From the NCBI RefSeq assembly GCF_044324785.1, contig NZ_CP172127.1: a stretch of 64,000 nucleotides of DNA; one strand, given 5' to 3'. Positions 4,897-9,860 of the stretch are shown here, one piece after another (within the stretch, counting starts at the first letter, position 1; each line of letters opens with the position of its first letter). Position numbers and translations under genes: made by a program. The notes under the pieces were generated by a model that had not been told where the DNA came from, searched no databases, and saw only the letters and a list, made by a program, of their open reading frames with translations. This stretch comes from Escherichia coli. Its GTDB lineage: Bacteria > Pseudomonadota > Gammaproteobacteria > Enterobacterales > Enterobacteriaceae.

Positions 4897-6258
<1,362 letters not shown>

Positions 6259-6397: not shown

Positions 6398-7537
6398 ATG
6401 AGCGCGGGAAGCCCAAAATTCACCGTTCGCCGCATTGCGGCTTTGTCACTGGTTTCGCTATGGCTGGCAGGCTGTTCTGACACTTCAAATCCACCGGCAC
6501 CGGTCAGCTCCGTTAATGGCAATGCGCCTGCAAATACCAATTCTGGTATGTTGATTACGCCGCCGCCGAAAATGGGGACGACGTCTACAGCGCAGCAACC
6601 GCAAATTCAGCCGGTACAGCAGCCACAAATTCAGGCTACTCAACAACCGCAAATCCAGCCAGTACAGCCAGTAGCTCAGCAGCCGGTACAGATGGAAAAC
6701 GGACGCATCGTCTACAACCGTCAGTATGGGAACATTCCGAAAGGCAGTTATAGCGGCAGTACCTATACAGTGAAAAAAGGCGACACACTTTTCTATATCG
6801 CCTGGATTACTGGCAACGATTTCCGTGACCTTGCTCAGCGCAACAATATTCAGGCACCATACGCGCTGAACGTCGGTCAGACCTTACAGGTGGGTAATGC
6901 TTCCGGTACGCCAATCACTGGCGGAAATGCCATTACCCAGGCCGATGCAGCAGAGCAAGGAGTTGTGATCAAGCCTGCACAAAATTCCACCGTTGCTGTT
7001 GCGTCGCAACCGACAATTACGTATTCTGAGTCTTCGGGTGAACAGAGTGCTAACAAAATGTTGCCGAACAACAAGCCAACTGCGACCACGGTCACAGCGC
7101 CTGTAACGGTACCAACAGCAAGCACAACCGAGCCGACTGTCAGCAGTACATCAACCAGTACGCCTATCTCTACCTGGCGCTGGCCGACTGAGGGTAAAGT
7201 GATCGAAACCTTTGGCGCTTCTGAGGGGGGCAACAAGGGGATTGATATCGCAGGCAGCAAAGGACAGGCAATTATCGCGACCGCAGATGGCCGCGTTGTT
7301 TATGCCGGTAACGCGCTGCGCGGCTACGGTAATCTGATTATCATCAAACATAATGATGATTACCTGAGTGCCTACGCCCATAACGACACAATGCTGGTCC
7401 GGGAACAACAAGAAGTGAAGGCGGGGCAAAAAATAGCAACCATGGGTAGCACCGGAACCAGTTCAACACGCTTGCATTTTGAAATTCGTTACAAGGGGAA
7501 ATCCGTAAACCCGCTGCGTTATTTGCCGCAGCGATAA
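6398..7537 (+). CDS. nlpD: Lipoprotein NlpD (LysM + M23 peptidase-like, amidase activator)
   Basis: 379 aa; lipobox LAGC, Q/P-rich repeat linker, LysM and C-terminal M23 domain; contains rpoS promoters by established knowledge. Confidence 0.93.
6594..6693 (+). repeat. Imperfect in-frame tandem repeats encoding QQPQIQP(V) units inside nlpD
   Basis: Repeated cagc(a/c)gccacaaattcag-like units read directly; protein shows [25 protein letters not shown]. Confidence 0.5.
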
Positions 7538-7599: not shown

Positions 7600-8592
7600 A
7601 TGAGTCAGAATACGCTGAAAGTTCATGATTTAAATGAAGATGCGGAATTTGATGAGAACGGAGTTGAGGTTTTTGACGAAAAGGCCTTAGTAGAAGAGGA
7701 ACCCAGTGATAACGATTTGGCCGAAGAGGAACTGTTATCGCAGGGAGCCACACAGCGTGTGTTGGACGCGACTCAGCTTTACCTTGGTGAGATTGGTTAT
7801 TCACCACTGTTAACGGCCGAAGAAGAAGTTTATTTTGCGCGTCGCGCACTGCGTGGAGATGTTGCCTCCCGCCGCCGGATGATCGAGAGTAACTTGCGTC
7901 TGGTGGTAAAAATTGCCCGCCGTTATGGCAATCGTGGTCTGGCGTTGCTGGACCTTATCGAAGAGGGCAACCTGGGGCTGATCCGCGCGGTTGAGAAGTT
8001 TGACCCGGAACGTGGTTTCCGCTTCTCAACATACGCAACCTGGTGGATTCGCCAGACGATCGAACGGGCGATTATGAACCAAACCCGTACTATTCGTTTG
8101 CCTATTCACATCGTAAAGGAGCTGAACGTTTACCTGCGAACCGCACGCGAGTTGTCCCATAAACTGGACCACGAACCAAGTGCGGAAGAGATCGCAGAGC
8201 AACTGGATAAGCCAGTTGATGACGTCAGCCGTATGCTTCGTCTTAACGAGCGCATTACCTCGGTAGACACCCCGCTAGGTGGTGATTCCGAAAAAGCGTT
8301 GCTGGACATCCTGGCCGATGAAAAAGAGAACGGTCCGGAAGATACCACGCAAGATGACGATATGAAGCAGAGCATCGTCAAATGGCTGTTCGAGCTGAAC
8401 GCCAAACAGCGTGAAGTACTGGCACGTCGATTCGGTTTGCTGGGGTACGAAGCGGCAACACTGGAAGATGTAGGTCGTGAAATTGGCCTCACCCGTGAAC
8501 GTGTTCGCCAGATTCAGGTTGAAGGCCTGCGCCGTTTGCGCGAAATCCTGCAAACGCAGGGGCTGAATATCGAAGCGCTGTTCCGCGAGTAA
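7600..8592 (+). CDS. rpoS: RNA polymerase sigma factor RpoS (sigma-38), full length
   Basis: ORF 7564..8592; start set at ATG 7600 ([11 protein letters not shown]...), 330 aa; codon 33 is GAG (Glu), no internal stop. Confidence 0.95.
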
Positions 8593-8712: not shown

Positions 8713-9120
8713 CTATTTGCTCATCATCTTGCGCACCAGTTGCATAAACAGCTCTTGCTCTTCTCCACTCAAACGCCCCAAAAATTCCTCATCCACACTG
8801 TCACCAATCGGTATCGCCGCAGCAAGTACCTTTTCTCCTTCGGCAGTCAGCCAGACAAAGCGACGCCGCTTGTCAGCGGCGTCATGTTCACGTCTGACTA
8901 AGCCACGATTTTCCATTCTTGCCAACATTTCTGCCAGCGTTGCTTTGGTGCTGACGGCTGCTTCCATCAGTGCCACCTGTTCGATACCAGGTTTATCAGC
9001 AATGGCGCGCATCACCGCGTACTGTGGTTTGGTCAGATCAGGTAACTCGTGCTGCCAGCGAGCCGTATGCTGCTGAAAAAGCTGTCGTAACTGATGGAAC
9101 GCTTTATTTCGTAACGCCAT
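8713..9120 (-). CDS. MarR/SlyA-family transcriptional regulator
   Basis: 135 aa winged-helix MarR-like sequence; divergent from the decarboxylase cluster. Confidence 0.8.
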   Translation of the reverse strand: MALRNKAFHQLRQLFQQHTARWQHELPDLTKPQYAVMRAIADKPGIEQVALMEAAVSTKATLAEMLARMENRGLVRREHDAADKRRRFVWLTAEGEKVLAAAIPIGDSVDEEFLGRLSGEEQELFMQLVRKMMSK

Positions 9121-9266: not shown

Positions 9267-9860
9267 ATGAAACTGATCGTCGGGATGACAGGGGCTACCG
9301 GTGCGCCTCTTGGTGTGGCATTACTGCAAGCGCTGCGGGAGATGCCGAATGTCGAGACTCATCTGGTGATGTCGAAGTGGGCGAAAACCACTATTGAACT
9401 GGAAACGCCTTACAGCGCTCGCGATGTTGCCGCCCTCGCAGACTTCAGCCATAACCCGGCGGATCAGGCGGCGACTATCTCTTCCGGCTCCTTTCGTACC
9501 GACGGCATGATCGTTATTCCATGCAGTATGAAAACGCTCGCCGGTATCCGCGCTGGTTACGCCGATGGTCTCGTAGGGCGCGCGGCGGACGTCGTGCTCA
9601 AAGAAGGCCGCAAACTGGTGCTGGTGCCGCGTGAAATGCCGCTTAGCACCATCCATCTCGAAAATATGCTCGCACTTTCGCGCATGGGCGTGGCGATGGT
9701 GCCGCCGATGCCTGCCTTTTATAACCATCCCGAAACGGTAGATGACATTGTCCACCATGTGGTAGCCCGCGTGCTGGATCAATTTGGCCTCGAACATCCT
9801 CACGCCAGGCGCTGGCAAGGGTTGCCGCAGGCCCGGAATTTTTCTCAGGAGAATGAATAA
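9267..9860 (+). CDS. UbiX/Pad1-family flavin prenyltransferase (decarboxylase B subunit)
   Basis: 197 aa, MKLIVGMTGATGA flavoprotein signature; first gene of three-gene cluster. Confidence 0.85.
   Translation: MKLIVGMTGATGAPLGVALLQALREMPNVETHLVMSKWAKTTIELETPYSARDVAALADFSHNPADQAATISSGSFRTDGMIVIPCSMKTLAGIRAGYADGLVGRAADVVLKEGRKLVLVPREMPLSTIHLENMLALSRMGVAMVPPMPAFYNHPETVDDIVHHVVARVLDQFGLEHPHARRWQGLPQARNFSQENE

Follow-up and report, generated by a model that had tools for sequence, protein, structure and literature searches.

The nlpD locus and its repeat tract

The stretch of DNA analysed here, a window of 64,000 nucleotides from the Escherichia coli contig NZ_CP172127.1 (assembly GCF_044324785.1), carries on its plus strand, at positions 6398-7537, an open reading frame of 379 codons plus a stop that encodes the murein hydrolase (AmiC) activator lipoprotein NlpD. 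The product matches the NCBIfam equivalog model NF008123 over residues 4-379 with a score of 679 bits where the cut-off is 311, and its translation displays the layout typical of this lipoprotein. It begins with a lipoprotein signal peptide (6398-6475) ending in the lipobox LAGC (residues 23-26), of which G25 and C26 are invariant in an alignment of 38 species, with Cys26 encoded at 6473-6475. This is followed by a low-complexity N-terminal linker rich in Q, P, S, T and N (residues 27-122, 6476-6763), 17 of whose 96 residues are glutamine and 15 proline, by a LysM domain (residues 123-165, 6764-6892; Pfam PF01476, E-value 2.7e-12), by a second long linker spanning residues 166-278, and finally by a degenerate LytM or Peptidase_M23 domain (residues 279-372, 7232-7513; PF01551, E-value 4.6e-33). 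The upstream neighbour of the gene is pcm (5632-6258), and downstream of it lies rpoS, which was recognized from the list of open reading frames and from annotated rpoS genes in related loci, and whose coding sequence runs on the same strand from an ATG at 7600 to 8592. The open reading frames of the window, taken together with the genes annotated next to nlpD at 16 E. coli loci, show the gene order surE-pcm-nlpD-rpoS, and an nlpD annotation is present in 5,420 E. coli genomes. The equivalog match, the lipobox/LysM/LytM layout and the synteny together identify the product of this open reading frame as NlpD. Earlier work on the protein established that its LysM domain directs it to the septum, that its LytM domain activates AmiC, and that anchoring in the outer membrane is required for its proper control (Tsang et al. 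2017, PMC5533458).

Within the N-terminal linker lies a tract in which three units of 24 bp are followed by a degenerate tail; it occupies codons 66-98 of nlpD (6593-6691, plus strand) and is read in frame throughout. Unit 1, CAGCAACCGCAAATTCAGCCGGTA (6593-6616), and unit 3, CAACAACCGCAAATCCAGCCAGTA (6641-6664), both encode QQPQIQPV; the diverged unit 2, CAGCAGCCACAAATTCAGGCTACT (6617-6640), encodes QQPQIQAT, and the tail (6665-6691) encodes QPVAQQPVQ. The first-pass annotation of this DNA had pointed to an in-frame, imperfect tandem repeat of QQPQIQP(V) in the N-terminal linker of NlpD, and this is indeed what codons 66-98 spell out; only the ends that it gave, 6594-6693, needed to be moved by one or two bases to coincide with codon boundaries. 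Tandem Repeats Finder describes the tract as 2.7 copies of a period of 24 with 70% matches and a score of 67. Units 1 and 3 specify identical peptides, with 3 of their 24 bases differing, all synonymously, and unit 2 differs from either at 7-9 of 24. The longest exact repeats in the tract measure 11-12 nt, among them an identical 11-nt core, CAACCGCAAAT, which recurs at 6596-6606 in unit 1 and at 6644-6654 in unit 3. The same program also reports a perfect tandem of two 9-bp copies, CAGCCAGTA, at 6656-6673 (100% match), which encodes QPV QPV. The tract of K-12 is two synonymous bases apart from that of the window. To a degree far beyond chance the NlpD tract is repetitive: at an offset of 8 residues it matches itself at 12 of 16 positions, and this value was reached in none of 5000 trials in which the residues of the linker were shuffled (mean 5.5, maximum 9), nor in any of 5000 further trials in which only the 63-residue Q/P-rich segment was shuffled (maximum 10).

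Length alleles across E. coli and their origins

The same annotation had suggested that such a tract would be prone to slipped-strand changes in copy number, which could alter the length of the linker. We compared the repeat number across the nlpD alleles of 5,426 complete E. coli genomes, 5,420 of which were matched by a 301-bp query. An even sample of 40 of these matches proved misleading, as 39 had the identical tract length and the tract consequently looked invariant; identity bands from a plain megablast search could not by themselves tell indels from SNPs, and the variants surfaced through the weakest match and through allele-specific queries. That weakest match, strain OkiPb01695, has a clean in-frame deletion of 48 bp that leaves a single QQPQIQPV unit. 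Carriers of this deletion were counted with a 600-bp query representing the deletion allele under a strict E-value, a design that rules out one-piece matches by three-unit genomes. One-piece matches over the 600 bp were obtained in 61 of the 5,420 genomes, and these encode an NlpD of 363 residues with one unit. The corresponding duplication of 48 bp, which yields five units and 395 residues, is found in one genome (PapRG-04-4), the loss of 9 bp, leaving one QPV copy and 376 residues, in seven, and the gain of 9 bp, with three QPV copies and 382 residues, in three. As a cross-check, a shorter query gave poor coverage in 59 genomes and no match in 3, and these 62 agree in number with the 61 deletions and the one duplication; 11 of the 21 genomes that fell into the 90-95% identity band of the same query are probably SNP-rich divergent lineages or carry other small indels. 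Queries built from synthetic two-unit and four-unit alleles recovered no allele shorter or longer by 24 bp among the complete E. coli genomes.

Repeat number is thus variable in this species, with length variants in 72 of 5,420 genomes (about 1.3%) and three units kept in about 98.7%, proportions that are to be read in a non-random collection of genomes in which O157:H7 is over-represented. The translated series of 363, 376, 379, 382 and 395 residues reappears in a collection of 15 billion proteins, where both exact 363-residue forms occur on at least 1000 contigs, one of them being named from Shigella flexneri, S. dysenteriae and S. boydii, and where the 376-, 382- and 395-residue forms occur on 633, 234 and 6 contigs, respectively. 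In addition, a 360-residue double variant occurs there on 7 contigs. All the length changes observed, of -57, -48, -9, +9 and +48 bp, are in frame and keep NlpD full-length, and the 48-bp alleles shorten or lengthen the linker by 16 residues; that linker length could be altered is what the first-pass annotation had anticipated. Its expectation of slippage-prone copy number holds in so far as the tract varies and does so recurrently, but the variation is rare rather than hypervariable, and its steps are of 48 or 9 bp and never of 24. With units that are multiples of three nucleotides, variation between strains and homoplasy, the tract is a coding variable-number tandem repeat, that is, an in-frame minisatellite.

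The point at which the alleles switch from one unit to another bears on how they would have arisen. The unit that survives in the deletion alleles invariably starts like unit 1 (CAG) and finishes like unit 3 (ATC CAG CCA GTG), so that it reads as CAG from unit 1, then CAACCGCAAAT, then CCAGCCAGTG from unit 3. The middle unit of the five-unit allele is the reciprocal hybrid, which starts like unit 3 (CAA) and finishes like unit 1, and the hybrid units of both 48-bp alleles change parent inside the 11-nt core CAACCGCAAAT. Misaligned pairing at this core in a 48-bp register would yield both the one-unit deletion and the reciprocal five-unit duplication, by either replication slippage or unequal sister exchange. 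The step would hence comprise two units and never one because the 48-bp alleles are the reciprocal products of a single misalignment with the switch inside the 11-mer; unit 2 would be too diverged to pair, which may account for the lack of 24-bp steps within E. coli. Similarly, misaligned pairing at the 9-bp QPV tandem would add or remove three residues. The +9 allele has three identical CAGCCAGTA copies, which is what would be expected if it was born on a haplotype with a perfect 9-bp tandem like that of the window; in K-12 and O157 the 9-bp pair is imperfect (GTG/GTA).

As only one crossover product is possible, deletion alleles that are identical in the tract can nonetheless be independent, and we judged their origins by the flanking SNPs within 1 kb on either side. 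The deletion haplotype of O157:H7, typified by TW14359, is one SNP from the three-unit O157 strain 644-PT8 and is separated by 14-15 SNPs from the other haplotypes with the deletion. A B1-like deletion haplotype (AMSHJX01, ESBL 15, 19AR0254) is one SNP from the haplotype of OkiPb01683 and 2014C-3061, which keep all three 24-bp units and carry the 9-bp loss, and four SNPs from RM8426, an O26 strain with the complete three-unit tract. The third deletion haplotype (ECCWS199, P276M, HS-01) is closest to K-12, at 7 SNPs, with another deletion haplotype at 9. The deletion haplotypes are 9-15 SNPs apart from each other and differ in their downstream context, which contains either ygbN or a MarR-family gene, and the 61 carriers fall into at least five identity classes. 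Judged from these flanks, the 48-bp deletion arose independently at least three times, and probably more often than that. The O157:H7 haplotype accounts for 28 of the 61 carriers, which are identical over 600 bp and include TW14359, EC4115, RM6067W, SS17 and SS52; SS17, TW14359 and EC4115 have been placed in clade 8 of O157:H7 lineage I/II (PMC4321836). Three units are kept in the O157:H7 genomes 644-PT8, NE 1169-1 and Balcarce_24.2. The length variants are tolerated, one of them, the deletion, being carried by O157:H7 strains of the clade-8 type and also by Shigella.

The role of the tract in NlpD

Both linkers of NlpD have been predicted to be disordered by DISOPRED (Tsang et al. 2017, PMC5533458). 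Among the homologues in the PDB we found no solved structure that covers the N-terminal linker, as DipM and EnvC match the LytM part only, and an AlphaFold model built from the 38-sequence alignment was poor throughout, with a mean pLDDT of 42, so that it neither supports nor contradicts disorder of the linker. The best-supported view of the tract is that it belongs to a flexible Q/P-rich tether, presumably disordered, that joins the lipid anchor at Cys26 to the LysM domain. The exact length of this tether does not appear to be critical, because the loss of 16 of its approximately 96 residues is carried by successful lineages. The tract therein most likely serves as a spacer whose exact length matters little, and we infer that changes in this length are nearly neutral. 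Taken together, we propose that the tract is a coding minisatellite in a disordered tether, which undergoes rare, recurrent, in-frame misalignment and acts as a passive spacer of uncritical length, a reading to which we assign a probability of roughly 0.8.

Comparison with relatives of E. coli gives a picture of turnover between genera and of relative constancy within Escherichia. We scanned species-representative genomes with DNA patterns, a search whose listed matches did not include E. fergusonii, E. marmotae or E. ruysiae. Four units are present in E. albertii and three in E. whittamii, in two further Escherichia species, in the divergent "E. coli" RM9387 and in E. coli SCPM-O-B-8794 (GTDB-listed L029). 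Citrobacter, Salmonella, Enterobacter, Leclercia, Lelliottia and Kosakonia have a single degenerate copy, PQIQPVQRPVTQPTQIQPV, and in Cedecea neteri two copies of QQPQIQPV precede RQPQAQPV. The matching position is taken up in Pantoea by an unrelated repeat of the SGGM type and in Erwinia by unrelated low-complexity sequence, and the motif of the tract is absent from the NlpD proteins of Yersinia and Pectobacterium. Consistent with this, Tidhar et al. (2009, PMC2736372) had noted that E. coli and Salmonella possess the P/Q-rich repeat region and that Yersinia, in which NlpD is still functional, lacks it. In the 38-species alignment residues 36-96 contain almost no conserved column, whereas the LysM and LytM domains are nearly invariant. 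Between Escherichia species the tract has a pN/pS of about 0.07, a value from small counts (21 synonymous sites) to which recombination mosaics may contribute, and its synonymous divergence of 0.57-0.75, which is saturated, is the highest in nlpD; the lowest synonymous divergence is that of codons 166-379, which contain the rpoS promoter and leader. From this the tract DNA is certainly not a conserved nucleotide element. On the other hand, the low pN/pS together with three units across the deep Escherichia lineages listed points to more constraint on the peptide, and possibly on its length, than a pure spacer needs, and we would cautiously suggest that drift of the peptide is restrained within Escherichia.

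This constraint is the main reason to consider that QQPQIQPV might be a functional motif that binds peptidoglycan, the divisome, a partner in the Tol-Pal/YraP pathway or an outer-membrane protein, with copy number setting the avidity. The low pN/pS would fit such a motif, the more so as it is seen where synonymous sites are the most diverged in nlpD, and so would the identity in peptide of units 1 and 3 in the face of their synonymous differences, the retention of three units in deep Escherichia lineages among the matches listed, and the repetition of the same octapeptide in Cedecea. Furthermore, a fusion containing the N-terminal linker alone showed weak affinity for midcell, where it was slightly enriched, which hints at a specific interaction (PMC5533458). 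Nevertheless, NlpD function is conserved in lineages in which the motif is absent (Yersinia, Pectobacterium) or replaced (Pantoea, Erwinia), two of the three units have been lost in lineages as successful as O157:H7 clade 8 and Shigella, and the counts behind the pN/pS value are small. We accordingly regard a binding motif as unlikely, albeit worth keeping in mind.

A related idea, that the length of the tether is adaptively tuned, would hold that the one-unit allele was selected because it alters the reach of LytM to septal peptidoglycan and the timing of AmiC activation. It draws on the occurrence of the same deletion on at least three haplotypes, on its presence in all 28 genomes of the O157:H7 deletion haplotype, including the clade-8 strains TW14359, EC4115 and SS17, on its occurrence in Shigella, and on the proposal of Tsang et al. 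that regulation of NlpD may depend on its distance from the peptidoglycan, which those authors offered as speculation (PMC5533458). Yet recurrence is to be expected from mutation alone when a single crossover product is possible, and presence throughout a clonal lineage can be a matter of hitch-hiking. The overall frequency of the deletion is 1.1%, its carriers come from unrelated hosts and phylogroups that share no ecology, and the reach of the LytM domain is buffered by the second long linker. Tuning of this kind therefore seems rather improbable. We are more doubtful still that the one-, three- and five-unit alleles measurably change the timing or strength of septal AmiC activation by NlpD; were this the case, the one-unit allele would contribute to envelope or stress phenotypes in the O157:H7 clade 8 and Shigella lineages, and the alleles would form a natural series for testing the model in which NlpD is held at a distance from peptidoglycan.

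That the tract belongs to the nlpD-rpoS operon and precedes its internal rpoS promoter is all that would recommend a role in rpoS expression at the DNA or RNA level, be it as an upstream promoter element or through an altered nlpD-rpoS read-through transcript. The major rpoS promoter lies inside nlpD, 567 bp before the rpoS ATG (PMC8545128), and in the window it would correspond to the hexamers TTGCGT (6999-7004) and TATTCT (7022-7027), assigned by us on either side of a 17-nt spacer, with a start site near 7033 (feature 6999-7033, plus strand). The first-pass annotation was right in placing the tract upstream of the rpoS promoter embedded in nlpD, as the tract ends 342 bp before this start site. 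It spans about -440 to -342 relative to the start site and lies outside the 567-nt leader, on which grounds we rejected it as an element of the rpoS promoter or leader, and about 295 bp separate its end from the reach of the -35 region. A palindrome resembling that of mqsRA lies at 6881-6891, with the tract 190 bp upstream of it, so that changes in tract length leave the spacing between palindrome and promoter untouched. The tract overlaps neither the promoter nor this palindrome, these being the two elements compared. It has no match in Rfam and no promoter-like site by a simple consensus scan, a scan that missed the known rpoS promoter too. Moreover, the variants are not polar, being all in frame, and the synonymous sites of the tract are the least conserved in nlpD, a pattern contrary to that of a conserved DNA element. 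The authors who described an nlpD deletion in Salmonella UK-1 reached the same conclusion for their case (PMC3391293), and an effect of the tract on rpoS is in our view very improbable. Finally, it is scarcely credible that the length variants are artefacts of assembly or sequencing through collapse or expansion of the repeat, since, even if repeats can be mis-assembled and the five-unit allele is known from one complete genome only, every read type used is longer than the whole tract of 99 bp, 61 independent complete assemblies agree on one and the same deletion, which is also found on at least 1000 contigs, the 395-residue protein occurs on 6 contigs from several independent accessions, and the hybrid units match precisely the reciprocal products that one crossover block would give.

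Counterparts of the tract and uses of its alleles

The passive, length-tolerant spacer that we favour has several parallels in the cell envelope. Proline-rich low-complexity spacers in RcsF, LpoA/LpoB, TonB and FtsK allow a domain anchored in one layer of the envelope to reach another, and the lengths of such spacers often tolerate change. The P/Q-rich linker of FtsK, with its repeats of the QQPQQPV type, resembles the NlpD tract in composition. Experiments on RcsF and the Lpo proteins have demonstrated that the length of their linkers is important, and we know of no comparable experiment on the linker length of NlpD.

The repeat itself has been known since 1994, when an unusual amino acid repeat in NlpD of E. 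coli K-12 was reported by Ichikawa et al. (J Bacteriol 176:1630), whose title announces it, and by Lange and Hengge-Aronis, as these papers are cited in PMC2736372; it concerns the same gene, tract and peptide repeat as in the window. In the literature searched we found no published description of length variants in E. coli, although one may exist. What the present analysis contributes is therefore a set of details on a known feature, namely the allele counts in the population, the crossover point, the recurrence of the deletion and the turnover between genera. These carry little weight for biology at large, the tract being a coding minisatellite of an ordinary kind that evolves slowly within a flexible tether. 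As such it is a clean example of how the divergence of one unit can fix the copy-number step, here at 48 bp, with both reciprocal products seen.

The closest counterpart among published variants is a 12-bp in-frame deletion in nlpD of Salmonella Typhimurium UK-1, which Luo et al. (2012, PMC3391293) placed outside the rpoS promoter. Like the alleles described above, it is strain-specific, in frame and of a microhomology type, and it affects the homologous Q/P-rich segment of nlpD; the deleted sequence, CGCCGCAACAAG, would appear to fit the PQQA start of that segment. It differs in species and in size, and as Salmonella has a single degenerate copy it does not amount to a change in octapeptide copy number. 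A local mutational bias inside nlpD, connected with the embedded rpoS promoter, is seen in Pseudomonas fluorescens SBW25, in which C565T is a transcription-dependent hotspot (Farr et al. 2025, PMC11838912). That hotspot is, however, a single base within the promoter and gives rise to a nonsense mutation; unlike it, the E. coli tract is situated about 340 bp upstream, is not transcribed from the promoter and changes by misalignment of repeats. Phase-variable contingency loci resemble the tract in the recurrent, repeat-mediated length change of a gene for a surface or envelope protein. They differ from it in that the NlpD units are 24 bp long, imperfect and present in three copies, and that their changes are in frame and give no switch behaviour. 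We considered such a locus as a candidate and rejected it, given that all changes are in frame, that the units match at 70% and that 98.7% of genomes share one length.

The natural series of tether lengths from 360 to 395 residues could be used for testing the periplasmic reach of NlpD against the activation of the septal amidase. The deletion also marks the O157:H7 lineage of TW14359, EC4115 and SS17 and some Shigella; given its repeated origin, any phylogenetic use of it as a marker calls for caution.

Repeat alleles of the NlpD linker within and beyond E. coli

Different genera carry different lineage-specific tandem repeats at the same position of the NlpD linker: an SGGM-type repeat in Pantoea (nlpD loci L024, L035, L044, L057, L072 and L122), two copies of QQPQIQPV in the Cedecea group (L021, L043 and L120) and three copies of QPV in Superficieibacter (L070). 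Judged from these sequences, this spot in the linker is one at which short repeats have arisen repeatedly across genera.

Within the E. coli tract (6593-6691) we also found a 12-nt exact direct repeat, CAGCCGGTACAG, at 6608-6619 and 6680-6691; the copies lie 72 bp apart and could serve as the source of a 72-bp in-frame deletion. In the search of complete E. coli genomes, such a deletion allele was not required to explain the genomes matched at low coverage. A 360-aa NlpD allele combining one repeat unit with one QPV was recovered from 7 contigs (the set of variant proteins P0155, P0151, P0153 and P0154), and the names attached to the one-unit protein (363 aa) include Shigella flexneri, S. dysenteriae and S. 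boydii. In the 90-95% identity band of the shorter-query search, the alleles differing by +/-9 bp leave 11 of the 21 genomes unaccounted for; possible explanations are divergent, SNP-rich lineages that bear the E. coli label, or further small indels. Across the tract region, strain RM9387 (NZ_CP009104.1), a complete genome labelled "E. coli", shares only 84% identity with the window, and its nlpD has one additional codon ahead of the repeat, with GI replacing A. RM9387 probably represents a cryptic lineage of Escherichia deposited under the name E. coli.

Divergence along nlpD and the embedded rpoS control region

Comparison of nlpD (6398-7537) with loci L002 (RM9387), L020, L029 and L128 showed that between-species synonymous divergence in Escherichia is uneven along the gene, peaking across the tract together with the LysM part and reaching its minimum in codons 166-379, which contain the rpoS promoter and its 567-nt leader. 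This pattern is consistent with nucleotide-level constraint by the embedded rpoS control region or, alternatively, with a recombination mosaic. In the window, nlpD also contains an mqsRA-like palindrome, ACCT-TAC-AGGT (6881-6891), which lies roughly 150 bp before the rpoS start site. In K-12 and nine further loci compared, the sequence is ACCT-TGC-AGGT, which is cited as the MqsA site for p-rpoS (PMC4894380); the window differs from K-12 by a G/A polymorphism in the spacer, with both arms unchanged.

The nlpD start codon and genes downstream of rpoS

RefSeq/PGAP rows (loci L001-L018) place the nlpD start at 6443 or 6449, 15-17 codons 3' of the ATG at 6398, and the K-12 CDS is accordingly annotated as 1095 bp versus 1140 bp. 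With the downstream start the lipoprotein signal peptide loses its positively charged K/RR n-region; the name NLPD_ECOLI is attached to the 379-aa protein starting at the ATG at 6398. Downstream of rpoS, in the rpoS-mutS region known to be variable (PMC4209514), the window has genes for a MarR-family regulator (8713-9120, minus strand) and a UbiX-like flavin prenyltransferase (9267-9860, plus strand) where K-12 has ygbN, and the one-unit nlpD allele is found with either arrangement.
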